In this document: positions 26,895-53,864 of the stretch, in pieces
Layout: every line of letters begins with the position of its first letter
Position numbering within the stretch: position 1 is the stretch's first letter
NCBI GenBank assembly: GCA_902496345.1
Contig: CABVAP010000001.1
Coordinates: forward strand, 1 to 61,964
Direction: 5' to 3'
Length of the DNA stretch: 61,964 nucleotides
Source of the DNA: an uncultured Eubacteriales bacterium
GTDB taxonomy: Bacteria; Bacillota; Clostridia; Lachnospirales; CAG-274
Notes under the pieces: model-generated
The model's database searches: none
Told to the model about the DNA's origin: nothing
The model's input: the letters and a program-made list of their open reading frames with translations, nothing else
Program-made: the position numbers and the translations under genes

Positions 26895-28268
26895 TTATTT
26901 TACAACTCTAACGACATCTTTTTTAGGGTCGGTAAATAACAAACCGTCATTTGTCAAAGTAAATTCCATAAGGTAACTACCAGCAATTTCAACATTACTA
27001 GCATTACCGTTTTGTGTTTCAGGGTTTTGGTCAATGCAAATTTTACCAGCTAAAGTTTCTGCTGATATTGCAATTTTACCTTCATTCATAGAAACTTTTC
27101 TGATAATGTTGTAATCAAGTACATATAATTCATTATCTTTGTAAACAAGTTTTCTAGGTTCAAAAAACATAGGATTAGGACCGTCAACAAATTTTGTTTT
27201 TCCGTCAACACCGGCAAATAATCTCAAATTATTTTGAGAAACATCGTAATAATAAATTGAGCCTTTTACCGTATTCCCTAGAAACAAATTACCAATTTCA
27301 TCAACAGCCAAACAAGTTATACCGGAATCAACTGTTTTGATATATTTAATAGTTCCTGTAGACATATCAAGTTCACCTATATTATTTTGACCTGTTCCAA
27401 CGTTATTTTGTAGCACATATAACTTACCATCAGGTGAAAAATTAAAATCGGTAATTTTGCTATAGACAGCTTCTGTAATAAAAATTCCTTCTGCATTTCC
27501 ACCGGTAAGTTTAACAATACCATAAAACTTATTACCCTTTTCATCTTGGAACTCATTTGTCAAAAAATAGACATCATTTTTATAGCACCTAACTAAATCT
27601 ATAGTTATATAGCTTGGTTCAAATTCGACAGTTTCACTTTTTCCATTAACAATTTTTCTCAAAACTCCGGAATCAGAAATATAAATAGTTCCGTCATCAG
27701 ATACGTCTATACTTTCCGGAGATATAAACTCCATTCTTTCAGTTGTGCTGTCATATCTTTTTCTTGCACCATTTCCAGCATAAGTAGAAACTGTTTTATC
27801 AGCAGAATACTTTAATGTTGTATCATATATTATAATAACAGAATTAGTTGCCGAATCCCAGCCAACAGTAGCACCAAAACACTCGGCCATATTTCTAACA
27901 GGTATATAAATATTTCCTCCAAACAGTCTTGGAGCATTATCGTAATGGATAACCGACGGCTTACCACCACCATTTATTTTTGATTTATATACATTTTTGC
28001 TACCCATTTGCATACTTATAATAGTTGTATCACTTTTGATATTTACAGTATCTGTTGCTGCAACCCAAACAACTTGAAATCCCATAGCCTCAGCAACAGA
28101 CCTAACAGGAACATAAATAGCTCCCTCATAATTTACAGGCTTTTGTTTTGAAACGACTTCTTGATTATTCAAAATAATTTTTATGTCATTATTTTCGCCA
28201 AATGCCACTATAGCAAAACAAACAGTAGCCATAAACAAAGAAAACAAAAATAAGCATATTTTTTTCAT
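26895..28268 (-). CDS. Secreted protein: two copper-amine-oxidase-N-terminal (stalk) domains + NHL/beta-propeller-like region
   Basis: Signal peptide. Stalk-domain repeats (GAIYVPVRSVAEAMGFQVVW; GNIYIPVRNMAECFGATVGW). Repeated DG.iY/lyV blade-like segments. Start at ATG 28268 (AAGGAGGG RBS). Confidence 0.65.
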   Translation of the reverse strand: MKKICLFLFSLFMATVCFAIVAFGENNDIKIILNNQEVVSKQKPVNYEGAIYVPVRSVAEAMGFQVVWVAATDTVNIKSDTTIISMQMGSKNVYKSKINGGGKPSVIHYDNAPRLFGGNIYIPVRNMAECFGATVGWDSATNSVIIIYDTTLKYSADKTVSTYAGNGARKRYDSTTERMEFISPESIDVSDDGTIYISDSGVLRKIVNGKSETVEFEPSYITIDLVRCYKNDVYFLTNEFQDEKGNKFYGIVKLTGGNAEGIFITEAVYSKITDFNFSPDGKLYVLQNNVGTGQNNIGELDMSTGTIKYIKTVDSGITCLAVDEIGNLFLGNTVKGSIYYYDVSQNNLRLFAGVDGKTKFVDGPNPMFFEPRKLVYKDNELYVLDYNIIRKVSMNEGKIAISAETLAGKICIDQNPETQNGNASNVEIAGSYLMEFTLTNDGLLFTDPKKDVVRVVK

Positions 28269-28304
28269 ATAAAACCCTCCTTTCAAAGTTTAAATATAAA
28301 TAAA

Positions 28305-29036
28305 TCAGTCTTTAAGCCTTGTACCACAACCAGAACAAAATACAGAATCCTCTTGATTAACAGCATTGCAATTAGGGCATATAACTTTTGTTGGTAGAGC
28401 CTGCCCACAGCTTGAACAAAAAGTTTGTCCGTCTGAATAGTTAGCCCCACAGTTTGGGCAATAATTATTAGAGCTATTATTTTGACTACTTGCAGTAGAA
28501 TTCTTAAGAAAATTGTTTACAAAACTTGGAAGTTGTATATCTTTATTATATTTAATATTGTTCAAATAATAATTAACACAAATTCCTGCAATACCACATA
28601 TTATTACAACTGTAAATCCAAAAGTAATGAAATCATATCCTACTCCCAAAAAACTGTCTAATAATTCCAATGCGTAACGCTCACTAGCTAATTTTGCTTC
28701 TCCCATACCTATATATTGATTTATAAGATATTTGACATACCCACCAGAAACAATCATTATTATAGGGAATTTCATAGATAAACTTTGTTTGAATAAATTT
28801 CCGGCAACAAATGCAGCAACCAATGCAACAATACACAAAAGAAACCATATTGCATTTGGCAACTCCAATTTACCTTTAAGAATTCTATTTACAAATTCAT
28901 AAATAAGGTCGAATACAGAAACTTCTTGAGATTTTCTTTCACCTGTAAAAAATGGGAAAAAAACTCCAATAAAAATAACCAAACACGCGAAACTATTTAT
29001 TTTTGAAATAATATCACTTATATCAAATTTTCTCAT
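28305..29036 (-). CDS. Membrane protein with C-terminal double zinc ribbon
   Basis: About 4 hydrophobic helices. C-terminal YCPNCGANY...CSSCG...CPNCNAV...CSGCG. Start at ATG 29036 behind AGGAGGTGA; the track ORF starts at 29069. Confidence 0.65.
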   Translation of the reverse strand: MRKFDISDIISKINSFACLVIFIGVFFPFFTGERKSQEVSVFDLIYEFVNRILKGKLELPNAIWFLLCIVALVAAFVAGNLFKQSLSMKFPIIMIVSGGYVKYLINQYIGMGEAKLASERYALELLDSFLGVGYDFITFGFTVVIICGIAGICVNYYLNNIKYNKDIQLPSFVNNFLKNSTASSQNNSSNNYCPNCGANYSDGQTFCSSCGQALPTKVICPNCNAVNQEDSVFCSGCGTRLKD

Positions 29037-29068
29037 AAAATCACCTCCTAAAAAATTATAAATTTTCA

Positions 29069-31153
29069 TCAGTCAAAATAATCAAAATCCACATATATTT
29101 CTGGAATATTGTCTTCATTTTTCTTATACTTTTCATTTTCAGCGTCATCGTTAGTTTTTTGTACAGTTTCAGTTTTTTGAGTTACAGATTGTTGTGTTTT
29201 TTCTGTTTTTGTTGACCCTGATGTGGTTGTTTTTGAGTTAGTTGCTGTTGATTGTGATTTATTATTATTGGAACTTGTTGTTTGTTTATTTGCTACATTC
29301 GTTGTTTTATTATTAGTGCTTGTTGATTGTTTGTTACCGTTTGATTGTTTACTTGTAGAAGTACTTACAGAGCTATTTGTAGAACTGCCATCAGAAACTT
29401 TTTTATTTTGCACAGATGTTTTAGTGTTATTTTCTTGAACTTTCAATTCACTATTTTTTAAATACACTTTTTGAGATTCACTTATAATTTTATTATAAAA
29501 GTCATCAAATCCGTCAATTTCTTTTATTGTACTAGAATTATATATTTTACCATTTGCATCAATATATCTTATGATTTGCCCATCTTTAATATAAAATCTA
29601 TGTTCTTCATTTCCTTGATGTACAAAAGCAAAATAAAGTTTTTCATTATCATAATAATAATCTCTTTTATAGTCCCAACCGTCATAGCCGGCAAAAACAG
29701 CAATTTTAACGGGATACTCCCCTTGAAAATAATACCCTGCATTGTCATTGTTTTCCCTATATGTATAACTTTCAATATTGTTATTTACATCATAGAATAA
29801 CTTTTTAATTTTAGAAATATCATCTTCAGAAGAGCCATCACCTTTATCAGTAATCCCACTTAAATCGCCTGTAACTTCTTCACTAACTCCTTGTGTTTCA
29901 TTTGAATCAATAGAACTTTCTTCTGAATAAGTTTCTGTTTCAACAATTAAATCCGTTTCAACAGTTTCACTATTGTTAATAATTCCATAAGAAATCCCAC
30001 CGATTAACGTAGCCCCTATAGCACAAGCTCCTAAGGTCATATATAGATTTTTATTTCTTGATTTATTCTTGTAGGTATCTTCTTTTAAATCTTGATTACT
30101 CATAAGTTGAGTAGCTTGATATTCTGTTCCCGTCATAGCTTTTGTAGCGTTTAAGTCTGAACCGATACTTACATAGTTGATACTTTTAATATCAGCAGTA
30201 TCACCTTCAGGATAAATAATTTTTCCCTCTGCAGCATTATAAAGAATACTTTCAAGCTCCATTCTCATAAGGATAGGACTGTTATATCTGTTTTTAGGTT
30301 CATACTCACACGCTTTCAAAACAATTTCAGCGAGTCTACCATCTGCATTAACAGGTTTAGGAATTTTTTTACCGCTAACTCTTTTAACTAAGGCAGATTC
30401 TCTGTCACCGTGGCTTATAGGTTTTGGGTATTCTGGCATAAATGGTGTTCTGTTATTGTTTAAAAGCCTATACATAACAATTCCTAAAGAATAAATATCG
30501 ACCGTTGAGCCATAGGCTTCACCCTTGTAAACCTCTGGTGCAATATAAGTATAAGTACCCTTTTTAGAAAGTCCAGCAGTTGTTTTTTCAACTTGTCTTG
30601 CAATTCCAAAATCACCAAGTTTAAAATCACCATTATCAGAAATAAATATATTTTCTGGTTTTATGTCACGATGAACAATATTATATTTTTGGCATAATTC
30701 CAGAGCTTTACAAATATCTATGCCGAGCTTGATTATATCTTTTTTAACAATTTTATGATTTTCGATATAATCAATAAGCCCTGTCAATTTTTCCATTCTG
30801 ATAAAAATATCCCATTCTATTTTATCAGTATTTTTAATGACCTTGTGGTCTTCATAGCTAACAATGTGGCTGTTTCCTTTAAGTTTTGACATCAGGACAA
30901 ATTCTTCAACTATATCCTCAACCAACTTTTCAAAATATTCGCCAACGCTGTTGTTATCCATACCATCAGCAACGATACTTTTAACTTCCGATTGACTTTG
31001 AGGAACTCTGATATGCTTCATAGCAGCAACATAAGTATTTCCGAAGTCGGTTCTTTCAATAGAATAAACTTTTCCAAAACTTCCCTCACCAATAATATCC
31101 TTTATATACCACGTATCCCAAAAAGGCTCAAATTTTTTAATATCATTATCCAT
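29069..31153 (-). CDS. Hanks-type Ser/Thr protein kinase 1 (single TM, non-PASTA extracellular domain, S/T/N/K-rich tail)
   Basis: GEGSFGKV, AMK, HRDIKPENIF, DFGIAR and YIAPEV motifs. TM LYMTLGACAIGATLIGGISYGII. Start at MDNDIKKFEPFW by analogy with its paralog. Confidence 0.9.
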   Translation of the reverse strand: MDNDIKKFEPFWDTWYIKDIIGEGSFGKVYSIERTDFGNTYVAAMKHIRVPQSQSEVKSIVADGMDNNSVGEYFEKLVEDIVEEFVLMSKLKGNSHIVSYEDHKVIKNTDKIEWDIFIRMEKLTGLIDYIENHKIVKKDIIKLGIDICKALELCQKYNIVHRDIKPENIFISDNGDFKLGDFGIARQVEKTTAGLSKKGTYTYIAPEVYKGEAYGSTVDIYSLGIVMYRLLNNNRTPFMPEYPKPISHGDRESALVKRVSGKKIPKPVNADGRLAEIVLKACEYEPKNRYNSPILMRMELESILYNAAEGKIIYPEGDTADIKSINYVSIGSDLNATKAMTGTEYQATQLMSNQDLKEDTYKNKSRNKNLYMTLGACAIGATLIGGISYGIINNSETVETDLIVETETYSEESSIDSNETQGVSEEVTGDLSGITDKGDGSSEDDISKIKKLFYDVNNNIESYTYRENNDNAGYYFQGEYPVKIAVFAGYDGWDYKRDYYYDNEKLYFAFVHQGNEEHRFYIKDGQIIRYIDANGKIYNSSTIKEIDGFDDFYNKIISESQKVYLKNSELKVQENNTKTSVQNKKVSDGSSTNSSVSTSTSKQSNGNKQSTSTNNKTTNVANKQTTSSNNNKSQSTATNSKTTTSGSTKTEKTQQSVTQKTETVQKTNDDAENEKYKKNEDNIPEIYVDFDYFD
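30250..31153 (-). repeat. Kinase-domain paralogous segment (pairs with ~32010-32924)
   Basis: Roughly 85-90% nucleotide identity by eye over about 0.9 kb with the kinase 2 5' region. Direct orientation, about 1.77 kb apart. Confidence 0.8.
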
Positions 31154-31186
31154 AATAATCACCCCATTTCAAAGTAAAAACTTTTG

Positions 31187-31510
31187 TTAATCCATATCAT
31201 CTAATAATGAAATTAAATAATAACATCTTTCTTTTGTAGCTTCTAATCCAGCACAATTTTGTGCCATAGTTGAACCTGAACCTCCTTCCCACTCTTTTGC
31301 AGCTTGTACAATTTCGCTATCTCTTTGCCTAATCCAAGCTTGTTCGTCCTTTTGTAACTGACTAAATTTTTCATAAGGCATTACAATTTTTATATATTTG
31401 TAAATTTTATTAAGTAGACCGTCCCACATTTTGTAAACATTACCTGATTCACTATTCGCTTTGAGTTGTAGCTTTTTGAAAATATGCTTCATAATATTTA
31501 TCAATTTCAT
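31187..31510 (-). pseudogene. LprI/DUF1311-like domain ORF, probably the frameshifted C-terminal extension of kinase 2
   Basis: WDGLLNKIY...QLQKDEQAWIRQRD...GGSGSTMAQNCAGLEATKERCYYL matches the DUF1311 pattern. There is no signal peptide or RBS of its own, and it overlaps the kinase 2 3' end by 59 nt in the +1 frame. Confidence 0.55.
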
Positions 31511-32924
31511 CAGCCGAATTTAAAAATGTTTCTTTCATTTCAGTAATATTTTGCTTTAAGATAGCCTTACTATTATCGACCCTTTCTGTTGTTTTTTCTG
31601 TTATTTTTTCTGTTGTTTTTTCTGTTGTTTTTTCCGTTTCTGTTGTTGATATAGGTTGTTGAGTTGTTTCTTGAACGTCTTTTATTTTTTCAGTTTCTAT
31701 AACACTTACTTCTGTCACAACTTCAATCATTTCCTTAGAAGCAGAAATATCTTTCTTTCTATATATTTCATAAATAATAATAGATGAAAAAACCACAAGG
31801 AAAACAATAACAGAACATAAAACAATAGTTATATAGTTTTTTTTATTATTTTGAGGCTTATTATATTCATAAATTGTATTGTCAAAGGATTGCTCAGAGT
31901 TTACCTCTCTTCTCGGCATAAATTGAGTAGGACTTAAATCATCATTCAAATCAACATAGCTATTAGCATACTGTTTTGGAGAATATGAAAAAGTTTCTTC
32001 TGAAACATTATTAAGTATGTTTTCTAGCTCTATTCTCATAGCAGTAGGAGTTCTATATCTGTTTTCAGGGTAAAATTCACAAGCCTTTAAAATAACCTTT
32101 GCCAACCTGTCCTCAGCATTCACAGGCTTAGGTAATTTCTGACCACTCATTCTTTTAACAAGGGCAGTCTCTTTGTCACCGTGACTTATCAGCTTAGGAT
32201 ATTCTGGCATAAAAGGTGTTCTGTTGTTGTTTAAAAGCCTATACATAACAATCCCCAAAGAATATATATCAACTGTCAAGCCATAGGCTTCGCCTTTATA
32301 AACCTCCGGTGCGATATAAGTATAGGTACCTTTTTTAGAAAGTCCGGCAGTTGTTTTTTCAACTTGTCTTGCAATTCCAAAATCACCAAGTTTAAAATCA
32401 CCATTTTCAGATACAAAAATATTTTCTGGTTTTATATCTCGATGAATAATGTTATATTTTTGGCATAATTCCAAAGCTTTACAAATATCAATTCCCAATT
32501 TAATTATATCTTTTTTAGCAACTTTATTTTTGCTAATATAATCAATAAGGGGTGTCAGCTTTTCCATTCTGATAAAAATATCCCATTCTATTTTATTAGG
32601 ATTTTTAACAACCTTATGGTCTTCATAACTAACGATATTGCTGTTTCCTTTAAGTTTTGACATAAGAACAAATTCTTCGATAATGTCCTCAACCAACTTT
32701 TCAAAATATTTTCCGACACTATTGTCGTCCATACCGTCAGCAACGATACTTTTAACTTCAGCTTGACTTTGAGGCACTTTTATATGTTTCATAGCAGACA
32801 CATAAGTTGTCCCAAAATCAATCCTTTCGATTGAATAAACCTTTCCGAAACTTCCCTCACCAATAATATCTTTTATGTACCAAGTATCCCAAAAGGGTTC
32901 AAACTTTTTAATATCACTATCCAT
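31452..32924 (-). CDS. Hanks-type Ser/Thr protein kinase 2 (paralog of kinase 1; ORF ends at an apparent frameshift)
   Basis: Same catalytic motifs as kinase 1. TM YITIVLCSVIVFLVVFSSIIIYEIY. TEKTT pentapeptide repeats. AGGTGA RBS before ATG 32924. Confidence 0.88.
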   Translation of the reverse strand: MDSDIKKFEPFWDTWYIKDIIGEGSFGKVYSIERIDFGTTYVSAMKHIKVPQSQAEVKSIVADGMDDNSVGKYFEKLVEDIIEEFVLMSKLKGNSNIVSYEDHKVVKNPNKIEWDIFIRMEKLTPLIDYISKNKVAKKDIIKLGIDICKALELCQKYNIIHRDIKPENIFVSENGDFKLGDFGIARQVEKTTAGLSKKGTYTYIAPEVYKGEAYGLTVDIYSLGIVMYRLLNNNRTPFMPEYPKLISHGDKETALVKRMSGQKLPKPVNAEDRLAKVILKACEFYPENRYRTPTAMRIELENILNNVSEETFSYSPKQYANSYVDLNDDLSPTQFMPRREVNSEQSFDNTIYEYNKPQNNKKNYITIVLCSVIVFLVVFSSIIIYEIYRKKDISASKEMIEVVTEVSVIETEKIKDVQETTQQPISTTETEKTTEKTTEKITEKTTERVDNSKAILKQNITEMKETFLNSADEIDKYYEAYFQKATTQSE

Positions 32925-32969
32925 ATCTATTCACCTAAAATTTATAAATTATAAGGAGTTGTTTTTTTA

Positions 32970-33045
32970 ATAAAGAGTATATTCCCTAAATATTAGCTTA
33001 TTTGTTTTTCTAATACAGTATAAATTTTAAGAATATACTCTTTAT
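32970..33045. promoter_or_regulatory. 15-bp perfect inverted repeat upstream of kinase 2
   Basis: ataaagagtatattc (32970-32984) and gaatatactctttat (33031-33045), with a 46-nt spacer. No flanking U-tract on either strand. Confidence 0.4.
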
Positions 33046-33143: not shown

Positions 33144-34061
33144 TTAATAAGTTTTACATTCAATACCTTTTTTCTTTGCATAACTTTCAGCATAACTTCC
33201 CGAATGTACTTGTAATGTTTTTAAATTTGGACACTGCGAGAACGTACTTTCTCCTATACTTGTCACACTATCGGGAATTGTTACACTTGTTATATTACAA
33301 TGCGAAAATGCATAATCACCTATGCTTGTTACACTATCGGGAATTTCTACGTTTATTAAATTGTCACATCTCTCGAATGCACTTATACCTATACTTATTA
33401 CACTGTTAGGAATTTCTACATTTACTAAATTGTCGCACCCCTCAAATGCCCATTTTCCTATACTTGTTACACTGTCCGGGATTATATATTTTGTTTCAGG
33501 CTTTCCTTGTGGATATTGTAATAACTCACTTTTGGCCTTATTAAATAAAACTCCATTTTCTGAACTATAGTTAACATTATCTTGTGATACCTTTATTTCT
33601 ATCAAGCTATCACAAGTATGAAATGCCCATTCACCTATACTTGTTACACTATTAGGAATTTCCACACTTGTTAAATTTCTGCAACAATAGAATGCATCTT
33701 CTCCTATACTTGTTACACTATTGGGAATTTCTATAAGTTTTAAGTTTTTACAAGCTTCAAATGCACTTTCACCTATACTTAATACATTAACTCCACCAAT
33801 TTTTTCAGGAATAATAACATCTTTTTCATTTCCAATAAATTTAGTAATGCTACCGATAGCACTATCAAACTCAAAACTACTTTCAGAGGTTTGGTTCGTC
33901 GTAAATGTAACACTCTCAGTTTCTTCAACGCTTTCATTTTTCTGAACATTTTCAGTTTGTACATTTATTTGATTCTCAGTTGGAAAACTATCATTAGATT
34001 GAACACCACACCCTGCAGTCATACAAACAACCATAAATAAACTTGAAATTTTCTTTTTCAT
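33144..34061 (-). CDS. Lipoprotein with BspA-type leucine-rich repeats (LRR_5)
   Basis: Lipobox MTAGCG. Repeated IPNSVTSIGExAFxxCxNL units. The tail SGSYAESYAKKKGIE is shared with modules of the neighbouring giant protein. Confidence 0.8.
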   Translation of the reverse strand: MKKKISSLFMVVCMTAGCGVQSNDSFPTENQINVQTENVQKNESVEETESVTFTTNQTSESSFEFDSAIGSITKFIGNEKDVIIPEKIGGVNVLSIGESAFEACKNLKLIEIPNSVTSIGEDAFYCCRNLTSVEIPNSVTSIGEWAFHTCDSLIEIKVSQDNVNYSSENGVLFNKAKSELLQYPQGKPETKYIIPDSVTSIGKWAFEGCDNLVNVEIPNSVISIGISAFERCDNLINVEIPDSVTSIGDYAFSHCNITSVTIPDSVTSIGESTFSQCPNLKTLQVHSGSYAESYAKKKGIECKTY

Positions 34062-42792: not shown

Positions 42793-43386
42793 TTAAAAAT
42801 TAATAATATTTAAACTCACACTTAAGAATAGAAATGGCAAAAAAGGAATTTCCGTTTTAATTTTTGCTTTTTTTAAAATCAAAAGACCAATACCATAAAG
42901 CATAGATATAAATAACGCTGTAAATAACACGTTAAAGATATGTGGATAACCGTAAGCAAAACTAAGAGCAATTATAACTTCTATATCACCAATACCAACG
43001 CTTGACTTTTTGACCTTATAAAACACAAGTAGAACAATTGCTATAACAACGCCCAAAATCACGCAATTAATTAGTTTACAATATGGATTAATAAGCATCA
43101 TAATTGCACATATAAAAGCAAATATGTATATGAATACAATAGGTATTTCCATATCTTTTATATCCCAAAAGCTAAGTAACAAAAGTAGTAATTGCATTGC
43201 CGATTGAGTAATGACGAAATATAAATCCATATCTTTCAAGAACAGCATTACATAGTTCGAAAAGCCAATAAGTATTAAAATAGGCAAATATAAAAGTTTT
43301 TTATTTAAAATCTTAAATTTTATATCTGCAAAAATGGCACAAGCCATAAAAACAACAGTCAATAAGACACAAATAACATAATCCAT
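42793..43386 (-). CDS. A24-family prepilin peptidase-like membrane protein, copy 2
   Basis: Polytopic. Asp contexts IFADIKFKILNKKL and SVGIGDIEVIIAL (GxGD-type). Confidence 0.65.
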   Translation of the reverse strand: MDYVICVLLTVVFMACAIFADIKFKILNKKLLYLPILILIGFSNYVMLFLKDMDLYFVITQSAMQLLLLLLSFWDIKDMEIPIVFIYIFAFICAIMMLINPYCKLINCVILGVVIAIVLLVFYKVKKSSVGIGDIEVIIALSFAYGYPHIFNVLFTALFISMLYGIGLLILKKAKIKTEIPFLPFLFLSVSLNIINF

Positions 43387-43403: not shown

Positions 43404-44345
43404 TTATTCCTCATCAGGTTTACATCTGCTACAAGCAGTAAGTTCTTTTCTCTTTGCTTCTGATATAGTCCCATATGTATAGTTTTCGTTCTTTGTTTTA
43501 TCTAAATAGAAGCAGCCATCTCTATGATATTTTTTACCTGCTCCTGATTCTGTCCAACAAACAGTTTTACCTGCTGCCACATCATCTAACTTTAAACCCT
43601 CTCGTTTAGACGGTGTAACGTGATTACCACCTTTAAGCCAAGCCTGTTCAATAGCCATACTTTTAAGTTTGACATCAAAAGCCGGAAAAAAAGGCAGTGT
43701 AATTTTATAGTTATATTCAACAGCTAAAATAACATCATTTTTGCTAAGTTTATCTTGTGCAATTCCTGTACGTTCAGAAATAATCTGTTTTGCGTTTGCG
43801 TTTTCAAATTCTGCTTTAGATTGTGGAAATGTAAAATATTTAACTGTAACCTTTGATTCATCAATATATATTTTATTTTCCGACAGAATTTTTTTGTATA
43901 TATTTGCTGCAAGTGCTGTTTGCTTATCACTTTTAAAAGTTTCAAGTTTGGTTAAAATATTTGATACAAAGTTGTCCTTTACCTCACTAATCGTATTAAG
44001 TACATTTTGAAGATTTCCTGTACTTGTTCCAAAATTAAAATTAAATCCCAATTCCTGAATAATAGATGTAGAGCCTCCGTCACCCAATTCTGATAATATT
44101 AATCCATTTTCAACATTATCCACTCTTTTTTGAACACCTTCAGCAAAATCATCAATCTCATTATTTACGTAAGAAATTGGGTAAGACATACCAGCAACTT
44201 TTTTAACGGTTTCGCTAGTAACATCATTAAGTGTAATATAGACCATAGACAGCTTTACGATTGACATAAGTATAAACATAAAGCATAAGAACACAGTGAA
44301 AGCGATAGTTGCCTCAATAGCCAAAGCACCTTTAACTTTTTTCAT
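43404..44345 (-). CDS. TadE-like pseudopilin with C-terminal Cys-rich (YH..C...C..C) module
   Basis: N-terminus MKKVKG|ALAIEATIAFTVFL (TadE-like, E at +5). The C-terminus is CWTESGAGKKYHRDGCFYL...ACSRCKP. Confidence 0.65.
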   Translation of the reverse strand: MKKVKGALAIEATIAFTVFLCFMFILMSIVKLSMVYITLNDVTSETVKKVAGMSYPISYVNNEIDDFAEGVQKRVDNVENGLILSELGDGGSTSIIQELGFNFNFGTSTGNLQNVLNTISEVKDNFVSNILTKLETFKSDKQTALAANIYKKILSENKIYIDESKVTVKYFTFPQSKAEFENANAKQIISERTGIAQDKLSKNDVILAVEYNYKITLPFFPAFDVKLKSMAIEQAWLKGGNHVTPSKREGLKLDDVAAGKTVCWTESGAGKKYHRDGCFYLDKTKNENYTYGTISEAKRKELTACSRCKPDEE

Positions 44346-46963: not shown

Positions 46964-47584
46964 TTAGTTATCAATTTCACTTGTTTTATCACTAATTGCG
47001 TCAATTTTTCCCTTTACTTCATCAATAATTGATTTAGTAAGTTCATAAATATAGTCAGCATTTCGGATAAACTCATCTGGGTCATATAGACTAGCTGAAC
47101 TCTGTGCCGATATGCTCATACCGTCCCCGTTACCAAAATAAACCATAATATTTCTAAAAGGAGCGTTTATTTCTTGTGTGGCACTAACGTCAATGCTACT
47201 GCCTAAAAAACTGGAATTATACACTGCCTCTACTGTAACATTTCCGCCGATAAAAGTTAAAGAGTCAACTATTTCCTTTGTTTTTTCTTGAATATATTGA
47301 ACTTCACTTTCTTTACTTCCAAATAAATCAAAATATAAATCCGGTCTGCCCTTGTTAGTTTTTCTTTTATCTCCAACCGTACCGTCAATAAAATTTTTGC
47401 TGCTGCCGTCATAATCCCACATCATTGCCCCTCTTGATGAGCCATACGACACAGCATATTCAAGAACAGCATTTTGATATAAAACCTGAAAGGCATATAA
47501 TACAGCAAATATAGCAATTAAAATTGTAGGAACAACAATAGTTGCTTCAAGTGTAAACATAGCCTTTTGTCTTTTTCTTTTCAT
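46964..47584 (-). CDS. TadE-like pseudopilin
   Basis: N-terminus MKRKRQKA|MFTLEATIVVPTILIAIFAVL (TadE-like hydrophobic segment, E at +5). Confidence 0.7.
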   Translation of the reverse strand: MKRKRQKAMFTLEATIVVPTILIAIFAVLYAFQVLYQNAVLEYAVSYGSSRGAMMWDYDGSSKNFIDGTVGDKRKTNKGRPDLYFDLFGSKESEVQYIQEKTKEIVDSLTFIGGNVTVEAVYNSSFLGSSIDVSATQEINAPFRNIMVYFGNGDGMSISAQSSASLYDPDEFIRNADYIYELTKSIIDEVKGKIDAISDKTSEIDN

Positions 47585-47617: not shown

Positions 47618-47683
47618 GGATATACAAACACAGTTACAAATCGCAACTGTGCTTGTATATCCCCTCATCTTCAAGATGAGAGG
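47618..47683 (-). terminator. Two strong stem-loops immediately 3' of the pilin gene (intra-operon attenuator/stabiliser)
   Basis: Arms 47618-47635 / 47645-47662 pair at 17 of 18 positions, followed on the minus strand by tattatattta. A second hairpin ctcatc..gatgag lies at 47663-47683. Confidence 0.6.
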
Positions 47684-47704: not shown

Positions 47705-47932
47705 TTATTTGCTACTTAATCCAGTTCTATCTTTAATTTCTCCTGGCTTTACATCTATCGTATCTGCATCGCCATTTGTTTTAAAAGCGTTATTTATTAA
47801 TCCTTGTGCAAAGTCTTTAATAGCGTCTTTAAAAACCATTGCAATAGCAACCAATATAGCAATAATAATAACTATTTCAATAGTTCCCATTGCCTCCTCT
47901 TCTTGCCAGAAATCCTTAAAAAACTTCATCAT
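47705..47932 (-). CDS. flp: Flp-family (type IVc) pilin precursor
   Basis: 75 aa. Charged leader MMKFFKDFWQEEEA, then MGTIEIVIIIAILVAIAMVF hydrophobic helix with Glu. Strong RBS GGAGGAG. Sits between tadC and tadE-like genes. Confidence 0.75.
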   Translation of the reverse strand: MMKFFKDFWQEEEAMGTIEIVIIIAILVAIAMVFKDAIKDFAQGLINNAFKTNGDADTIDVKPGEIKDRTGLSSK

Positions 47933-48051
47933 AGTAATCTCCTCCTTTCTAAAATATTTTTAATTTTTATATTAAAGGTACTTTGCAAAAGCGTTTCCCT
48001 CTAATGACATAAAATAACCCTTTTTTTGAAAAAATAAAATTTCAATGCAAA

Positions 48052-48996
48052 TTATGCCCCACTAATACTAAGTATCGCTGGAAGTACAACAACCATAATT
48101 ATTCCGATAAGCATAATAGCCATAGGAATCATAAGTTTACTACTTGCCTTTTCCCCTTGTTGCTTTGCAGCAGCCTTTCTAAGTTCCCAACAATCGTCTG
48201 CTTGTTCTCGCAATGCCGGAACAACTTGAGTACCACCTTTTTTCAAGTTCAAAACAATTATAGAAACACATTTAATAACTTCTTTTATTTTGCAACGTCT
48301 TGCAAATTCCTCATAAGCCTGTGCTTCACCCTTGCCGGCTCTAATCTCCGACATAGTTATGGTGAGTTCTCTATATAATGGAGTATCTTTTCTGTTGTCC
48401 TCAACAATTTTTTCCCAAGCCTTGTTTATTGTAAGTCCGGCATTAACAAGCAATAATAACTTGTTTACAAATTCAGGAAAATCAATTTGTATAGACAATC
48501 TTTTTTCTTGAATTTTGTCTTTTAAGCTCTTATCTAATAAAATAGGCACAGCAATTAAACAAATAAATGCAACTGAAAAGAATAATTTAACATTGCCCCC
48601 ATCGTTATTAATACAAGAAATGCCACTTAAAAACATACATATAAGAAAAGCTGCAACTGCACCAAAATATTTTGTTGCCGTATGTATTTCATAATAGTAA
48701 TCAGCATATTTATGTGTATATAGCTCTGTAATATCTCGCTTTATATTTTCGTTATATCTGTAATAAGGTTCAGAAATTTTTGAAAAAACGAATTTTCTAA
48801 TTGGTAAAACCTCATTAAGATATAGTCCGATAGGCAAATATTTTTTTGCCTTAAATTCCTCTTCGTCAAGAGGTTCGATATATTCATCGTATACCCCTTT
48901 AGATTTTGTATATGCAATCATAAACACCACAAAAGCAAGTAAAAAGAATATTAAATTTAATATTTTAACAACCCAAAATGCAATAGTCATAAACAT
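48052..48996 (-). CDS. tadC: TadC-like platform protein (T2SS F family)
   Basis: T2SSF domain DFPEFVNKLLLLVNAGLTINKAW...MIPMAIMLIGIIMVVVLPAIL, with N- and C-terminal TM segments. Confidence 0.8.
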   Translation of the reverse strand: MFMTIAFWVVKILNLIFFLLAFVVFMIAYTKSKGVYDEYIEPLDEEEFKAKKYLPIGLYLNEVLPIRKFVFSKISEPYYRYNENIKRDITELYTHKYADYYYEIHTATKYFGAVAAFLICMFLSGISCINNDGGNVKLFFSVAFICLIAVPILLDKSLKDKIQEKRLSIQIDFPEFVNKLLLLVNAGLTINKAWEKIVEDNRKDTPLYRELTITMSEIRAGKGEAQAYEEFARRCKIKEVIKCVSIIVLNLKKGGTQVVPALREQADDCWELRKAAAKQQGEKASSKLMIPMAIMLIGIIMVVVLPAILSISGA

Positions 48997-48999
48997 ACG

Positions 49000-49818
49000 C
49001 TACACCTCAATATCAACAATTTTTTCAGAAACAAGAAAAGCAATAGTAAACATAACAATTGCGATAGTCATAACAACGTTACCTGTAATTGTCGAAAAAA
49101 CAGGCTCCATAAACTCGGGAGATGACATAGATAATATAAGAATCATAAATACAGGCATAACAGCCATAATACGACTTTCAAATTTCTTGCTTGTAATAGT
49201 TGTTTCGATTTCTCGTTTTGTTTCGATTTTGTCGCCGATAACTTGAGATGTATTTCTAACAACCTCTGCCAAGTTTCCCCCTGTTCTTTTACAAACACTA
49301 ATGATGTCAGCAAAATTTTCAATATCATCAATGTGCGAACGGTCGGCAAATTCTTGTATAGCCTGTTCAACTGGTTCATTCATTTCAATTTTTCTTACGA
49401 TAAAGACAGCCTCTTTCATAATAGCTGTGTCAGGGTTTGCATAGATAATAGCTAAATCCCTTAAAGCGTCTTTAAAAGCCATTTCAATAGAACGACCGGC
49501 CTCCATAGAAGATGAAACAGAATACAATAAATCTTTAAATTGAATTGTTAAGTTGTTTTTTCTTTTTTTGATTATGGATTTTGTTCTTATTTTGGGATAT
49601 TTAAAAGCAAATAAAGCAAGTAATGCCGAAAGTATTGGGTTGTGATAAAATATCATTCCCACAATAAAAATGACGATATAAGCAAAAATAATATTTATGA
49701 TATTTTCTTTTTTGCTCATTATGTATACATCATAGTCTATAATTCCTGCTTCTTGCTGTTCCCACTGTTGACGTCTAAGTTCTTTCTCTGCCTTTTTGTC
49801 TTTTTTTTCTTTTGCCAT
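49000..49818 (-). CDS. tadB: TadB-like platform protein (T2SS F family)
   Basis: T2SSF domain FKDLLYSVSSSMEAGRSIEMAF...GGNLAEVVRNTSQVIGDK. Start at ATG 49818 behind GAGGTGG. Confidence 0.8.
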   Translation of the reverse strand: MAKEKKDKKAEKELRRQQWEQQEAGIIDYDVYIMSKKENIINIIFAYIVIFIVGMIFYHNPILSALLALFAFKYPKIRTKSIIKKRKNNLTIQFKDLLYSVSSSMEAGRSIEMAFKDALRDLAIIYANPDTAIMKEAVFIVRKIEMNEPVEQAIQEFADRSHIDDIENFADIISVCKRTGGNLAEVVRNTSQVIGDKIETKREIETTITSKKFESRIMAVMPVFMILILSMSSPEFMEPVFSTITGNVVMTIAIVMFTIAFLVSEKIVDIEV

Positions 49819-49832
49819 AAAAACCACCTCTT

Positions 49833-51068
49833 TCACACTTTGTCAGATAAACCTGCCATTCTAAATTTAAAAGTATTTATCATAGGATTTTCTGTTCGTT
49901 GCAAATTACCGATAATTTTGTTGTTTTCATCTTCACCAAGTTCAATAAATTTATAAAGTGGGTTCATTTTAATTTCACCATTTTCATAATTAAGAACTTC
50001 GCTTATCTCAACAGTTCTTCTTGATTTATCACGCAATCTTGAAAGTTGGATAATAACGTCAACAGCCGATGCCATTTGGTGTCTAATTGCATCAAGTGGC
50101 ATATTTGCACCGGTTAAAACCATTGTTTCAAGTCGACTTAACATATCACTTGTAGAATTGGCGTGACCTGTTGAGAGTGAACCGTCGTGACCTGTGTTCA
50201 TAGCTTGAAGCATATCAAGAGCCTCTGCCCCTCTAACTTCGCCGACAACAATTCTTTCCGGTCTCATACGCAATGAAGACTTTATGAGGTCACGCATAGT
50301 GATTTCACCTTTTCCGTCAGTATTTGCGTTTCTTGTTTCCATTCTAACAAGGTTCTCTACCCCCTTTATTTGCAATTCTGCTGAATCTTCGATTGTTATA
50401 ATTCTTTCATCTTTCGGAATAAAGTTTGATAAAGCATTTAGAAAAGTAGTCTTTCCAGAGCCTGTACCACCACTTATAAAGATGTTGTATTTTGCCTTAA
50501 CCATTCGCTCAAGAAGTTCAGCAACCTCGGGGGTTATTGACTTATAGGCGATAAGCTGACTAATAGTCATAGGATTTTCAGGGAACTTTCTTATTGTAAC
50601 CGTTGGACCGTCAAGGGCAATCGGTGGAAGTACAATGTTTACTCTGGAACCGTCTTTAAGTCTTGCGTCAACTATAGGTGATGATTCATTTACAATTCTG
50701 TTTACTTTGGAAACAATATTTTGAATAACGTTTTCGAGAACAGCCGTACTAGAAAATGTATTAGGTACTCTTGATAATCTGCCTGACCTTTCAATAAAAA
50801 TGTTATCAGGTCCGTTAATCATAATTTCTGTTATAGTTGGGTCATCAACAAGAGGTTGAAGTGCGTCAAGTCCTCTCATAGAATTAAAAACATTGTTAAA
50901 CAAACTTACTTTCATATCTATTGTCAAATAGTCCTCTAATGACATATTTGTAATAACCTTGTAAATAATGTCTTTAAGTTCATCATCATCAATATCTCTG
51001 CTTAAATCCATAAGCTCAGCAACTTTAGCTTTTGTAGAATAAACCAAAGAATTTAAATCATTATTCAT
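49833..51068 (-). CDS. tadA: CpaF/TadA-family pilus assembly ATPase
   Basis: Walker A ISGGTGSGKTTFLNAL. RIITIEDSAEL. RMRPERIVVGEVRGAEALDMLQAMNTGHDGSLSTGHANS. Confidence 0.93.
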   Translation of the reverse strand: MNNDLNSLVYSTKAKVAELMDLSRDIDDDELKDIIYKVITNMSLEDYLTIDMKVSLFNNVFNSMRGLDALQPLVDDPTITEIMINGPDNIFIERSGRLSRVPNTFSSTAVLENVIQNIVSKVNRIVNESSPIVDARLKDGSRVNIVLPPIALDGPTVTIRKFPENPMTISQLIAYKSITPEVAELLERMVKAKYNIFISGGTGSGKTTFLNALSNFIPKDERIITIEDSAELQIKGVENLVRMETRNANTDGKGEITMRDLIKSSLRMRPERIVVGEVRGAEALDMLQAMNTGHDGSLSTGHANSTSDMLSRLETMVLTGANMPLDAIRHQMASAVDVIIQLSRLRDKSRRTVEISEVLNYENGEIKMNPLYKFIELGEDENNKIIGNLQRTENPMINTFKFRMAGLSDKV

Positions 51069-51083
51069 AAAGAACCCCCAATT

Positions 51084-52133
51084 CTATAGTAAACGTATAA
51101 TTGGTTCAAGGTCATCAAAACCAATGTTTTGATTTTTAAGAACAATTTTTATATTTTTGTAACTTTCATTAAAAGGAATTTTCAAAACATCATTATCAAA
51201 ATTTTTTTCGTATGCCATATTTTCGATAAATATAGTTTTAGATAAAATAGATTTTTCATATTTGAGTTTTTTCATTTCCGAAACAAATAGATTAACCTTT
51301 TGCTTTGAGAGTTCATTATTTAAATAAGGGAATAAAACTTTTTTACTTTTCTTTAAGATGTCAAATACACGTTTGTTAAATTCACCAACAAAATCAAGAA
51401 CCACATAGTCAAATTCTGTAAGTCCCTCTGCTGCGTTAATTATGTCCATAATTTCATCATCAGACATTTGAGCATATTCCGTACAGCTTTCGGCAGGATT
51501 TATGTAATAAATTTTACTTGCTTGATTTTGAACAACATTAGATAAAATTTTTGTAGGAATACTTTTTTTGTTTGTTCGTGCAGCAAAGAACACGTCTGTT
51601 AGATTGTTTATACCGTCATTGTTAAAAATTCCGGCCATTGAAGAAACTCTTTCAAAATTCAGATATAATACTTTTGCCCCACTAAGAGATAGATTTTTTG
51701 CTAATAGAATAGATAAAGTTGTTTTTCCACTGCCACCGACAGGCGAATATATAGAAATAATTTTCTTTTCTCCGTCATTAGATAAAATATAACTGCTGTC
51801 GCCGGTTTTTTCAGAATATATAAATAAAATATCATTTACAAATTTGTCAAGTTTCTGATATTTTTTAATTGTTGAATACTCATCGCTTTCAGCTTCAAAA
51901 GTTTCGGTCATAAGTATTTTCACAACATTGTCTTCGTAAAATTTAATATACTTTGTATATTCATCAGAAAAAAGTATAATATCCTGTTTTGTGTTTTCCG
52001 TGAACTCAGTAAACTTTTGGAAATCAGAAAAAGATAAAACTGTAAAATTATCTGTTTTATTTATAAGATAATTTGAAATTTTTTCTAAAAAACCCTTGTC
52101 ACTGTCCAAAATAACAATATTTAATTTAGCCAT
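51084..52133 (-). CDS. tadZ: TadZ/CpaE-like ParA/MinD-family ATPase with N-terminal receiver-like domain
   Basis: N-terminal NIVILDSD... REC-like fold. Deviant Walker A SPVGGSGKTTLS. First gene of the tad operon. Confidence 0.75.
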   Translation of the reverse strand: MAKLNIVILDSDKGFLEKISNYLINKTDNFTVLSFSDFQKFTEFTENTKQDIILFSDEYTKYIKFYEDNVVKILMTETFEAESDEYSTIKKYQKLDKFVNDILFIYSEKTGDSSYILSNDGEKKIISIYSPVGGSGKTTLSILLAKNLSLSGAKVLYLNFERVSSMAGIFNNDGINNLTDVFFAARTNKKSIPTKILSNVVQNQASKIYYINPAESCTEYAQMSDDEIMDIINAAEGLTEFDYVVLDFVGEFNKRVFDILKKSKKVLFPYLNNELSKQKVNLFVSEMKKLKYEKSILSKTIFIENMAYEKNFDNDVLKIPFNESYKNIKIVLKNQNIGFDDLEPIIRLL

Positions 52134-52254
52134 AGAACCCCTCCAGACATCTTGTAGCTATACTATATATAAAAATAGCTACAAAATTTTTTGAACTTTT
52201 TACCTATAAAACTTGAATACCTTTTATATAAATTTTAATATATATTACTTGACA

Positions 52255-52314
52255 TTTTTTTTCAATATGTGACAACAAGAATACAAAATAAAATATAGTT
52301 GTCACATATTTCAT
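52255..52314. promoter_or_regulatory. Copy B of the conserved palindromic motif, in the tadZ / regulator divergent promoter region
   Basis: T-run + caatatgtgacaacaagaatacaaaataaaatatagttgtcacatatttcat. The 13-bp arms AATATGTGACAAC / GTTGTCACATATT are perfect. Lies 122-181 nt upstream of tadZ and 66 nt upstream of the regulator ATG. Confidence 0.6.
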
Positions 52315-52379
52315 TTATTTAATAAATATGCTATTATTAATGTGATAGATTAGTATTTTTGTTAAAGAAAGGGTTAATT

Positions 52380-53864
52380 ATGGATAAAAAAGAGGCAATT
52401 TTAAATACATTAAATACTACAATTTCAGAAAGAGGATTAAAGATTTACTCACTTGCAAAAATAACAGGGATAAATCGTTCGACTTTACAAAAATCATTGC
52501 AAGGTACAAGAACATTAAATTTAAGGCAATTTAAAATTTTAATAAATGCTCTTCCTTTCTCAATTCAAGAGAGGAAAAACCTATATGATGATTTTTTGGA
52601 ATGTATTTGGGAAAAAGAGAGAATTATAAGCAATAAAGCTATATTAGATATAATTAACGTATTAACCAACCTAACCGTAGAAAATACTGGAAATTCGGGG
52701 GGAGGGGGGGTAGAACGGCTAAAACTCAGTATTTACAATATTACTTTCCCTGAACTAAAAAAAGTATATACAGGAGAGATAATTTTTGATGTTATAAAAA
52801 ATTTAATTATAGAAGAAATTGAATTAACTAAAGATATATCATCAGATATACGTATATATCTTCCGTTTGATAATGACTTTTTTAATAAAACAATTTTGCC
52901 GTGTGTCAATAATCTAAAAAATTCTTTACAACTTTCAATATTGTTTGAATTTTTTAAAAGCACACAAGCAAACAATCCACAAAATATATTAATACTAAGA
53001 AATATACTTCCGTTACTACTCGACCCAAATAATCATTATAACATTTATTATCTGTATTCAGATTTTACAAATAGTAACAACTTAACGTTATATCCTTATT
53101 ACATAATTTTAAGTAATAAAATTATAATGATAAGCTATGATTTGAATAGTATATCTATCATTGAAAACGAAGAGTTTTTGACAAAATACATAGACCACCA
53201 TAATAACAAAGTAAAGTTTGGAAATCCATTAAAAGTCGATATTTTGGAGATTGAAAACACAATAAAACATTTATTAACTGATACAATATATGATGACAAT
53301 ATGTATGCAATAGCTTATGACCCTTGTATCTCTGCCTTTGTTCCGCCAGATATGTTTAATGATTTAATCACAGATGAATTTCCAGAAAGAGAAGAGTTTT
53401 TAAATATAATTAATCATCGACTATCACAAATGTCAAAAATACCAAAAAAATATGCTTTGTTTAATAAAGATTCAATTGATGATTTTATAAATGATGGGTA
53501 TATAGTAGCTTTTAGACACCCAAACCTAAGACCTTGTACATTAGAGCAAAGAAAAATAATATTGTCGAATATATTAAATCTGTTAGATAGTAATAAAATC
53601 TTTCTTCGAGCGTTTTCTGCTGAAGAAATAAATATCTCAAGAAAATATGAAATAACTAATATACAAAATCACTATGATTTTAGTATAATGATTTACTCTG
53701 AAACATCAATAAGGGTAATAACAATACACGAAACAATTATAAGTAATTGCTTTATACAATTCATCAACGATATTATGGAAACAGATAAAGTATACACGTT
53801 GGAAGAAACAAGAACTTTATTCAAACAAGCAATTAATAAATTAGACAATTTATTAAAAAAATAA
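52380..53864 (+). CDS. HTH (XRE-like) domain protein, candidate regulator of the tad locus
   Basis: N-terminus GLKIYSLAKITGINRSTLQKSLQGTRTLNLRQFKILINAL. About 400 aa of unassigned, AT-rich-coded C-terminal region. Divergent from tadZ. Start chosen at ATG 52380. Confidence 0.65.
   Translation: MDKKEAILNTLNTTISERGLKIYSLAKITGINRSTLQKSLQGTRTLNLRQFKILINALPFSIQERKNLYDDFLECIWEKERIISNKAILDIINVLTNLTVENTGNSGGGGVERLKLSIYNITFPELKKVYTGEIIFDVIKNLIIEEIELTKDISSDIRIYLPFDNDFFNKTILPCVNNLKNSLQLSILFEFFKSTQANNPQNILILRNILPLLLDPNNHYNIYYLYSDFTNSNNLTLYPYYIILSNKIIMISYDLNSISIIENEEFLTKYIDHHNNKVKFGNPLKVDILEIENTIKHLLTDTIYDDNMYAIAYDPCISAFVPPDMFNDLITDEFPEREEFLNIINHRLSQMSKIPKKYALFNKDSIDDFINDGYIVAFRHPNLRPCTLEQRKIILSNILNLLDSNKIFLRAFSAEEINISRKYEITNIQNHYDFSIMIYSETSIRVITIHETIISNCFIQFINDIMETDKVYTLEETRTLFKQAINKLDNLLKK
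52697..52710 (+). repeat. G6-A-G7 homopolymeric tract inside the regulator ORF
   Basis: ggggggaggggggg encodes SGGGGV in frame. It is the only long G/C run I noticed in this AT-rich window. Confidence 0.9.

Follow-up and report, generated by a model that had tools for sequence, protein, structure and literature searches.

Tad/Flp pili are widespread colonisation organelles whose assembly and control in monoderm bacteria are poorly known, and most accounts of their regulation are of transcriptional control by two-component systems or cyclic di-GMP (c-di-GMP). The locus described here raises the question of why the structural gene set of such a pilus should contain a gene for a forkhead-associated (FHA) domain protein and be followed by genes for a PP2C phosphatase and Hanks-type Ser/Thr kinases. 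It lies at positions 26895–52133 of contig CABVAP010000001.1 (assembly GCA_902496345.1, an uncultured Eubacteriales bacterium of lineage CAG-274), which we analysed over a stretch of 61,964 nt, hereafter the window. From the comparison of related loci, the FHA gene, which encodes a DUF6382-FHA membrane protein, appears to be a core gene of a Clostridial Tad subtype, and the phosphatase and kinase genes appear to be frequent accessories that are physically tied to it. We lean, without great confidence, towards the view that the protein is a scaffold at the base of the pilus and that threonine phosphorylation switches its contacts.

The DUF6382-FHA gene and the Tad gene set

An open reading frame (ORF) map, the translations and Pfam scans reproduced, at its coordinates, the gene list for 26895–52133 given by a first-pass annotation made from the DNA letters, and all of these genes are on the minus strand. 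The short gaps described in that annotation were found as well, the exceptions being about 120 nt both before and after flp and a stretch of 219 nt that separates the gene for a leucine-rich-repeat (LRR) lipoprotein from that for kinase 2. The annotation had extended the locus to 53864; its minus-strand part stood, while 52359–53864 proved to hold a divergent plus-strand gene that it had not described. The gene of interest (41059–42777; 572 aa) has Pfam matches to DUF6382 (6.5e-21) and FHA (3e-9) and is placed between the genes of two A24 prepilin peptidases, peptidase a and peptidase b.

Related loci were retrieved by means of an alignment in which the FHA protein was set beside the handful of relatives found in databases, and their genes were labelled with tblastn and in-house hidden Markov models. 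The 108 loci comprised 28 from species-representative genomes (among them Clostridia metagenome-assembled genomes, Acetivibrio mesophilus, A. straminisolvens and Ruminiclostridium papyrosolvens) and 80 from metagenomes, and dereplication at 80 % FHA-domain identity reduced them to 48 lineages. Lineages with at least 6 kb of upstream sequence (38) were used for the Tad count, and those with at least 1.5 kb downstream (44) for the counts of neighbours. Word-indexed protein searches returned only 5, 0 and 6 matches, and the census rests on the locus scans and on phmmer; a single-sequence exhaustive phmmer search with the DUF6382 N-domain gave 497 clusters at 50 % identity. Both DUF6382 and FHA were present in all 28 genome relatives according to Pfam.

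The order that recurred among these loci was tadZ-A-B-C-flp-tadE-tadG-tadE2-pepA-DUF6382-FHA-pepB, where pepA and pepB encode peptidases a and b. The tadA, tadB and tadC genes were present in 35 of the 38 informative lineages, and an A24 peptidase gene lay no more than three genes from the FHA gene in 32/44. Since the same order is found in dozens of independent Clostridia loci, the arrangement is far beyond chance, and, judged by this synteny, we count the DUF6382-FHA gene among the core genes of the Clostridial Tad subtype seen here.

In agreement with the first-pass annotation, the Pfam matches and the conserved order identify the locus as one for a Tad/Flp type IVc pilus of the monoderm, Clostridia-type kind, with an apparently full Tad set and with the FHA gene inside the structural genes. 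The first gene, which is also the conserved first gene among the related loci, encodes a ParA/MinD ATPase of the TadZ/CpaE kind, which has an atypical receiver domain and the Walker A motif GGSGKT (51084–52133; AAA_31 2.7e-11, TadZ-like_ARD 2.4e-8). It is followed by the genes for the 411-aa TadA/CpaF secretion ATPase (49833–51068; T2SSE 4.4e-61), in which a Walker A motif was found and T2SSE was the only domain, and which is 58–92 % identical to its counterparts in related loci; for the platform proteins TadB (49000–49836; T2SSF 2.3e-9), polytopic by hydropathy, and TadC (48052–48996; T2SSF 2.1e-12); and for the 75-aa Flp major pilin (47705–47932; Flp1_like 1.2e-14), which carries a class III leader (...EEAMG/TIEIV...) and, by hydropathy, one hydrophobic segment at aa 11–42. 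Directly 3' of flp and ahead of the pseudopilin genes, the terminator-like scan placed a hairpin on the same strand with a 20-bp stem (47618–47662; 20 pairs), the sole feature that stood out in the promoter and terminator scans. This hairpin may act as a partial terminator/attenuator or as an mRNA stabiliser that sets the ratio of pilin to machinery.

A 206-aa TadE-like pseudopilin (46964–47584; Pfam TadE at only 0.011) with a KA/MFTLE N-terminus (A/G-x4-E) and one N-terminal transmembrane segment is matched by a homologue at the corresponding place in the majority of related loci, and the positions of an 857-aa TadG-like protein (44363–46936; Tad PF13400 4.7e-5, DUF5702 3.9e-9) and of a second TadE-like pseudopilin of 313 aa (43404–44345; Pfam TadE at only 0.026; KG/ALAIE N-terminus) are conserved too. 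The 313-aa protein has a Cys-rich C-terminal tail (window 43404–43560; C-x17-C ... C-x2-C with Y-H-R-x-G-C), a motif found in 5/38 of its homologues (e.g. L044 and L048), which may equip the pseudopilin with a metal-binding module outside the cell.

Peptidase a (197 aa; 42793–43386; Peptidase_A24 2.2e-9) is of the TadV type, both of its Asp motifs (D..IP, GIGD) being matched by pattern, and its gene is conserved as the one next upstream of the FHA gene. Peptidase b (173 aa; 40525–41046; Peptidase_A24 1.8e-15) usually comes directly after the FHA gene in related loci; its Asp motifs (SDYK...IKN, AGDVK) were read by eye, the pattern search having given no match. Neither has a methyltransferase domain, and no BLAST-level similarity was found between them. 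Both types hold their positions around the FHA gene across many related loci, which suggests that they share the work, perhaps with one acting on Flp and the other on the pseudopilins.

Compared with known Tad/Flp pili (Aggregatibacter tad, Caulobacter cpa and, among monoderms, those of Bifidobacterium and Eubacterium rectale), the window has the same core parts in the usual order, with weak Pfam matches for its TadE-like pseudopilins. It lacks a pilotin, and Pfam detected no secretin in its Tad locus, as expected in a monoderm. Its extras are the two unrelated A24 peptidases, a protein joining a pseudokinase fold to an FHA domain, the PP2C phosphatase and the Hanks kinases. Neither an FHA domain nor the other extras are mentioned in two surveys of Tad systems (PMC3244431, PMC6668835), where the term 'FHA domain' does not occur, and a literature search returned no paper joining 'tad locus', Firmicutes and 'forkhead-associated'.

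Two sets of loci depart from the common order. In an Acetivibrio-like group (L006, L008, L019, L026, L049, L064, L075, L081, L093) no tad ATPase gene lies within 10 kb, and the order is a gene for a 1250-aa GGDEF-STAND(NB-ARC)-TPR protein, DUF6382-FHA, pepB, fur and htpG. The 1250-aa proteins of this group were considered as EssC and rejected, being GGDEF-STAND-TPR proteins, and such a neighbour hints at a link to c-di-GMP. Minimal loci with the order tadZ-A-B-C-(flp)-DUF6382-FHA (L047, L050, L067, L070, L090, L092, L103) have no pseudopilin or peptidase genes nearby. A locus of Thermoclostridium stercorarium (GCA_001310995), looked up additionally, was again a tad locus. At its end (L110, 10001–11537), DUF6382, a middle ORF and FHA are called separately (180, 132 and 200 aa), reflecting either frameshifts in a draft assembly or a naturally split version.

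The only paper found that names DUF6382 (PMC11217815, 2024) assigns DUF6382-FHA proteins (TseJ, TsfJ with two transmembrane helices, and TsjJ), a PPM phosphatase and membrane kinases to the type VII secretion system (T7SS) variants T7SSe, T7SSf and T7SSj, and a TadZ-like ATPase, TsfV, to T7SSf. It also reports, without explanation, that T7SSg and T7SSh always adjoin full Tad sets, and it already proposes phospho-regulation by analogy with the T6SS (type VI secretion system). The window shares with T7SSe/f/j the DUF6382+FHA architecture (two transmembrane helices, as in TsfJ), the trio with phosphatase and kinases, and the TadZ-like ATPase. It is conceivable that the trio belongs to, or regulates, a variant of that kind (TsxJ/TsxF/TsxD) and that the tad genes are mere neighbours, as for T7SSg and T7SSh. 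However, the partner machine in the window is a Tad pilus. Pfam detected no T7SS genes in its 62 kb, the sole match in a search for an FtsK/SpoIIIE-type EssC/TsxC ATPase being a sub-threshold P-loop match of TadA, and no WXG100 (TsxA) or YukD-like (TsxB) gene was found among ORFs from 90 aa upwards in the flanks and from 50 aa upwards in the locus, the scan having covered some of the very small ORFs outside the locus. Nor was any T7SS family recurrent among 77 unlabelled neighbours of DUF6382-FHA genes, and in most lineages the gene lies between the two peptidase genes inside the tad set. On these absences we rejected a T7SS assignment for this locus, which we consider very improbable. The same 77 neighbours included two contact-dependent inhibition (CDI) toxin EC869-like nuclease domains, three rhomboid proteases and two patatin-like phospholipases.

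What is new relative to that work is a trio that occurs without T7SS genes, a pseudokinase fold for DUF6382, of which the paper makes no mention, and a conserved candidate phosphothreonine motif. In addition, DUF6382-FHA appears, from gene neighbourhoods, to be predominantly a tad-locus gene in our sample, which is possibly biased to Tad-linked members.

The DUF6382-FHA protein

The DUF6382 domain (aa 1–190; 42208–42777) was modelled with AlphaFold2 at a predicted local distance difference test (pLDDT) score of 84 and a predicted TM-score (pTM) of 0.82. In a Foldseek search of the PDB the top matches of this model were the N-domain of TraF from the pIP501 type IV secretion system (T4SS; 8cba) and EssB/YukC of T7SSb (4ano, 6z0f), with TM-scores of about 0.56 on both query and target, and many true kinases ranked after them. 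No catalytic Lys or Asp was invariant in the DUF6382 family alignments, and the DUF6382 profile had no match among PDB sequences. Because the fold is kinase-like, the catalytic residues are not invariant and the PDB holds no sequence match, we describe DUF6382 as a compact, cytoplasmic domain with a predicted pseudokinase fold. Kinship with EssB or TraF at the sequence level was rejected on the empty profile search, the likeness being one of fold only, and Pfam YukC had no match in the DUF6382-FHA protein.

EssB/YukC and TraF likewise are membrane proteins of Gram-positive envelope machines that have a compact pseudokinase fold of about 190 aa at their cytoplasmic N-terminus. Whereas EssB has one transmembrane segment and an extracellular domain, the protein in the window has a two-helix transmembrane hairpin (aa ~268–321; 41815–41976; hydropathy segments 268–295 and 294–321) and a cytoplasmic FHA domain, the hairpin placing both the DUF6382 and the FHA domains in the cytoplasm. 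It thus unites in one chain the pseudokinase and FHA folds that EssB and EssC hold separately. With its modelled EssB/TraF-like N-domain, the protein resembles a structural scaffold no less than a signalling adaptor.

Between the membrane and the FHA domain lies a linker of about 150 aa, Lys/Pro-rich and predicted to be disordered (AlphaFold2 pLDDT <50). Within it, conserved alignment columns mark two copies of an E-[RK]-T-V-L-M motif, at T443 and T462 (41383–41457). The consensus, [EK]-T-[VA]-[ILFV]-[LM], is near-invariant and the motif is present in 28/34 lineages; the column of T462 holds 27 T and one S among 28 sequences, with L, M or F at the +3 position in all 28, and a second copy, which in the window is that at T443, is common among relatives. 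We propose these threonines as candidate phospho-acceptors and, once phosphorylated, as candidate ligands of the FHA domain (pT-x-x-L/M). A disordered motif of the pT-x-x-L type next to an FHA domain resembles the ETTS autoregulatory switch of GarA/OdhI. AlphaFold2 modelling of the linker together with the FHA domain yielded no coordinates or contacts, a result that speaks to disorder and not to docking.

The FHA domain itself (aa 472–572; 41062–41364) was aligned to OdhI/GarA and modelled with a pLDDT of about 90, and the structures nearest to the model were those of genuine phosphothreonine readers, namely MDC1, CT664, OdhI/GarA, Ki67, ArnA (5a8i) and EmbR. Throughout the family, residues G497, R498, K514, H516, S533, N535 and G536 do not vary. 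The pattern 'G-K-x-H' was found in 32 of the 34 pattern-matched lineages, and more distant DUF6382-FHA branches retain the canonical 'S-R-x-H'.

Phosphatase, kinases and a possible threonine switch

Downstream of peptidase b lies the gene for a cytoplasmic PP2C/PPM Ser/Thr phosphatase (39704–40495; PP2C 2.7e-16), whose catalytic motifs (RENNED, DGLGG, GDS, SDGV, DNAT) are intact. The two kinases are encoded further downstream and each has one transmembrane segment and intact catalytic motifs. Kinase 1 (697 aa; 29069–31162; Pkinase 3.7e-40) carries an unclassified ectodomain and an S/T-rich tail. The first-pass annotation had attached a DUF1311 domain to kinase 2; both kinase and domain were found, as separate ORFs, with kinase 2 in one of 490 aa (31452–32924; Pkinase 1.5e-39) and the LprI/DUF1311 ectodomain in another of 107 aa in the +1 frame (31187–31510; LprI 7.9e-13). 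The stop codon of kinase 2 comes just past an A5 run at 31473–31477, and one A fewer would give a single kinase-transmembrane-LprI protein. The two kinases are tandem paralogues, 67 % identical in amino acids over 435 aa and 84 % in nucleotides over 928 nt, with different ectodomains, neither of which, as had been noted at first pass, contains PASTA domains.

Across the lineages, a PP2C gene lay within three genes of the FHA gene in 13/44 and a Hanks kinase gene in 9/44; 18 lineages had either and four had both, and L003 has both as well, slightly beyond three genes. At first pass, a lack of synteny of the FHA, phosphatase and kinase genes with tad genes in relatives had been named as grounds for refutation; such synteny was found, for the phosphatase and kinase in this part of the lineages. 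When the positions of the PP2C and kinase genes in the 108 loci were compared with those of the other ORFs by Fisher tests, both were concentrated at the FHA gene: all 22 PP2C ORFs lay at −1 to +5 of it, 17 of them at +1 (p = 5e-7), and all 21 kinase ORFs lay at +1 to +6, 12 of them at +1 (p = 2e-5). On this positional evidence, we regard the PP2C/kinase pair as a common accessory with a physical tie to the FHA gene.

The closest relatives retain the order FHA-pepB-PP2C-kinase. In L003 the PP2C gene is followed by a kinase gene (67 % identical to kinase 1), by an orthologue of the last gene of the window's locus and by a gene for an RCC1-like protein. That last gene encodes a secreted protein with a 'stalk' domain and an NHL beta-propeller (26895–28286; Cu_amine_oxidN1 7e-26, NHL weak), and the L003 orthologue, 47.5 % identical, lies directly after the kinase. 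In L001 the kinase by the FHA gene has a beta-propeller ectodomain, and in L017 the kinase carries a Big_2+NHL ectodomain and is followed by pepB and by a gene for an S-layer homology (SLH) protein. The NHL or propeller ectodomains of the L001 and L017 kinases parallel the separate NHL protein of the window and L003, and it is possible that the latter is a co-sensor of the kinases.

Taking the gene content, folds, catalytic motifs, linker motif and synteny as observed, we infer a set of signalling steps in which it is conjectural both what is targeted and which way the effect runs. DUF6382-FHA would be a scaffold where TadZ, TadA and TadBC form the base, and Thr phosphorylation would switch its contacts, a reading that we hold to be somewhat more probable than its negation. 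The two membrane Hanks kinases, perhaps together with the secreted NHL-propeller protein, would respond to an envelope or contact cue and would phosphorylate a Thr, most plausibly that of E-T-V-L-[LM] in the linker of the scaffold, or else one in a Tad base protein. The FHA domain would then bind the phosphothreonine in cis or in trans, altering the assembly or activity of the machine, and the cytoplasmic PP2C would reset the switch.

Comparable arrangements are known elsewhere. In the T6SS pathway (PpkA/PppA/Fha1 with TagQRST; in Agrobacterium, phosphothreonine on TssL bound by Fha) a membrane Hanks kinase bearing an extracytoplasmic sensor domain, a PP2C phosphatase and an FHA protein are likewise encoded with an envelope-spanning machine, and the logic there is one of gating after translation. 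In contrast to the T6SS, the machine of the window is unrelated, Pfam annotation of all 62 kb having shown none of the T6SS core genes (TssA-M, Hcp, VgrG), and the FHA protein is membrane-anchored, fused to a pseudokinase domain and without the canonical Ser. The archaellum of Sulfolobus is controlled through ArnA/ArnB with FHA proteins, Hanks kinases and phosphatases, a control that acts on transcription and in which ArnA is soluble.

Several observations weigh against a phosphorylation switch in the window. FHA domains of the EssC and YscD types work without phosphate, and the canonical phosphate-binding Ser is replaced here by Gly513, invariably Gly in the clade, so that phosphothreonine binding is not assured. 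In 26 of the 44 lineages (59 %) there is no adjacent kinase or PP2C gene; the scaffold evidently works with no pair of its own, though housekeeping kinases could serve. In the window itself, three surface-protein genes and the 219-nt gap separate the PP2C gene from the kinase genes, and the kinase 2 region (31187–32924) contains a frameshift that parts the kinase from its LprI ectodomain and may reflect an error in the assembly, a pseudogene or phase variation. The promoter and terminator scans of the window gave counts near the shuffled expectation, which are uninformative and cannot define transcription units. Finally, the sample was seeded with FHA motifs of Tad-linked members and may under-sample DUF6382 linked to T7SS.

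Part of this evidence would also fit a purely structural role, in which DUF6382-FHA is a phosphorylation-independent architectural subunit, by analogy with EssB and the FHA domains of EssC in T7SSb or with YscD, and the PP2C and kinases regulate something else, for instance the envelope or the adjacent surface proteins. Gly513 and the lineages without an adjacent kinase or phosphatase favour this reading, as do the likeness of the pseudokinase fold to EssB and TraF and a weak Pfam match to the cytoplasmic FHA-like domain of YscD from the type III secretion system in 25/28 members. In addition, the EssC FHA domains bind the EssB pseudokinase without phosphate (PMC11217815). However, the PP2C and kinase genes of these loci occur only near the FHA gene, mostly at +1, the remaining residues of the phosphothreonine pocket are invariant, the distant branches retain S-R-x-H, the T-x-x-L motif is conserved within a disordered linker, and the FHA model best matches phosphothreonine-binding domains. 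With these points in view, we regard a structural role without phosphorylation as possible, if rather doubtful, and retain the switched scaffold as the preferred reading.

A broader form of the switched scaffold may be put forward as speculation, and we think it unlikely. DUF6382-FHA, PP2C and ectodomain-bearing Hanks kinases would form a portable Thr-phosphorylation gate that is plugged into various envelope-spanning machines of Bacillota, Tad pili in this case and T7SS variants in others, a Gram-positive counterpart of PpkA/PppA/Fha of the T6SS. It would work through a GarA-like switch, within or between molecules, of the FHA domain and a phosphothreonine in E-T-V-x-L, and the machine of the window would be a device triggered by contact or an envelope cue and linked to giant SLH-anchored proteins, and not a constitutive adhesive pilus.

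Surface proteins and flanking genes

Between the PP2C and kinase genes lie three genes for surface proteins. The first encodes a secreted 212-aa 'stalk' protein (38989–39627; Cu_amine_oxidN1 4.1e-10), in which Pfam did not detect the NPCBM domain assigned at first pass, and for which L003 and L007 have homologues located downstream of their tad genes. The second encodes a 1601-aa protein (34138–38943; LRR_5 1e-107, SLH 2.5e-12) with BspA-type LRR blocks, an RCC1-like propeller, to which the WD40_RLD and RCC1_2 matches were weak, and a C-terminal SLH anchor. The third encodes a BspA-type LRR lipoprotein (33144–34061; LRR_5 6e-51; lipobox MTAGC) whose N-terminus is paralogous to the 1601-aa giant.

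The LRR genes are insertions specific to the window, none having been found in the related loci. Other large surface proteins recur beside Tad loci of this type, also in distant lineages. An SLH protein is encoded directly after the DUF6382-FHA region in L017; directly downstream there are an SLH protein and Ig/Y_Y_Y giants of about 1600–1900 aa in L050 and L067, an SLH protein and a 2694-aa RCC1-repeat giant in L090, and an RCC1-like protein in L003. SLH was the commonest family among the 77 unlabelled neighbours of DUF6382-FHA genes. This recurrence speaks for the co-location of such envelope proteins but falls short of showing them to be cargo, since they carry Sec or lipoprotein signal peptides of their own. 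We view the LRR/RCC1/SLH giant, like its fellow surface proteins, as a co-located envelope protein that is possibly co-regulated. The first-pass annotation had suggested that the LRR/SLH giant is a co-expressed adhesin or cargo; the recurrence of SLH, RCC1-like and Ig giants agrees with an association, while the LRR part is peculiar to the window and the role as cargo is speculation.

The same proteins could be taken to indicate a secretion or contact weapon, that is, not mainly an adhesive pilus but a phosphorylation-triggered device of the Kil or type II secretion kind that exports or displays the giants or acts on neighbouring cells. Giant SLH, RCC1-like, Ig or PKD proteins are encoded downstream of DUF6382-FHA in the window, L003, L017, L050, L067 and L090, SLH is the most recurrent neighbour family, CDI-toxin-like domains occur in 2/77 neighbours, and the FHA-rich, Tad-like Kil system of Myxococcus kills on contact (PMC8460266). 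The paper on Kil draws the T6SS Thr-phosphorylation analogy for that machine, and in Kil, as in the Arn system and the window, a type IV filament machine comes with FHA proteins. Kil, however, is a diderm system with the secretin KilC and an FHA-fused CpaF-like ATPase (PMC8460266), neither of which the window has, and neither Kil nor the Arn system has a DUF6382 pseudokinase domain. TadA without an FHA fusion, unlike KilF, a normal Flp pilin and pseudopilins, giants with signal peptides of their own and the absence of LRR genes from related loci all argue against a weapon, which we consider quite unlikely.

Between kinase 1 and the stalk-NHL gene lies a gene for a membrane protein with 3–4 transmembrane segments and a C-terminal double zinc ribbon (28305–29069; Zn_Ribbon_1 5e-15, DZR 4e-10), which overlaps the stop of kinase 1 by 1 nt and for which no homologue was found in the related loci. 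At the other end, the divergent gene on the plus strand (52359–53864) encodes a 501-aa protein with a weak N-terminal helix-turn-helix match (HTH_26 5.6e-4, HTH_3 2.5e-3, both below the curated cut-offs). It had no relative in loci L001–L028 and, from its position alone, is a possible local regulator. Rfam and tRNA scans of the window gave no match, and no riboswitch control was therefore detectable.

The remainder of the contig, which has a GC content of about 31 % and includes spoVT, holds housekeeping genes and cohesin/dockerin proteins as judged by Pfam. Proteins with cohesin and dockerin domains are encoded at 21241–25407 and 1226–1855, one of them, of 1139 aa, combining a GH25 lysozyme domain, a GBS_Bsp-like domain, five Listeria-Bacteroides repeats, cohesin and dockerin, and these proteins imply that the host has cellulosome-type surface assemblies. 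On the minus strand at 54015–55964 there is a gene for a 649-aa fusion of ferredoxin-like 4Fe-4S, [FeFe]-hydrogenase large-subunit-like and methyl-accepting chemotaxis protein (MCP) signalling domains, which looks like a soluble hydrogenase-like chemoreceptor and adjoins a gene pair of the bifurcating-hydrogenase type at 58478–61890. At 56206–57883, also on the minus strand, adjacent or overlapping genes encode a SIR2-family protein (294 aa) and a Macro-domain protein (282 aa) and look like an ADP-ribosylation pair of the SirTM/macrodomain type.

Taken together, these results would define a large, Clostridia-wide Tad subtype with a previously unrecognised core component, and give DUF6382 both a predicted fold, that of a pseudokinase, and a genomic home. 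They would also offer a simple explanation for the puzzling links to Tad and TadZ around the new T7SS variants. The proposed switch has testable residues in T443, T462, R498 and K514, and, if it is true, Ser/Thr phospho-gating would extend from the T6SS to the type IV filaments of gut, rumen and cellulolytic Firmicutes.

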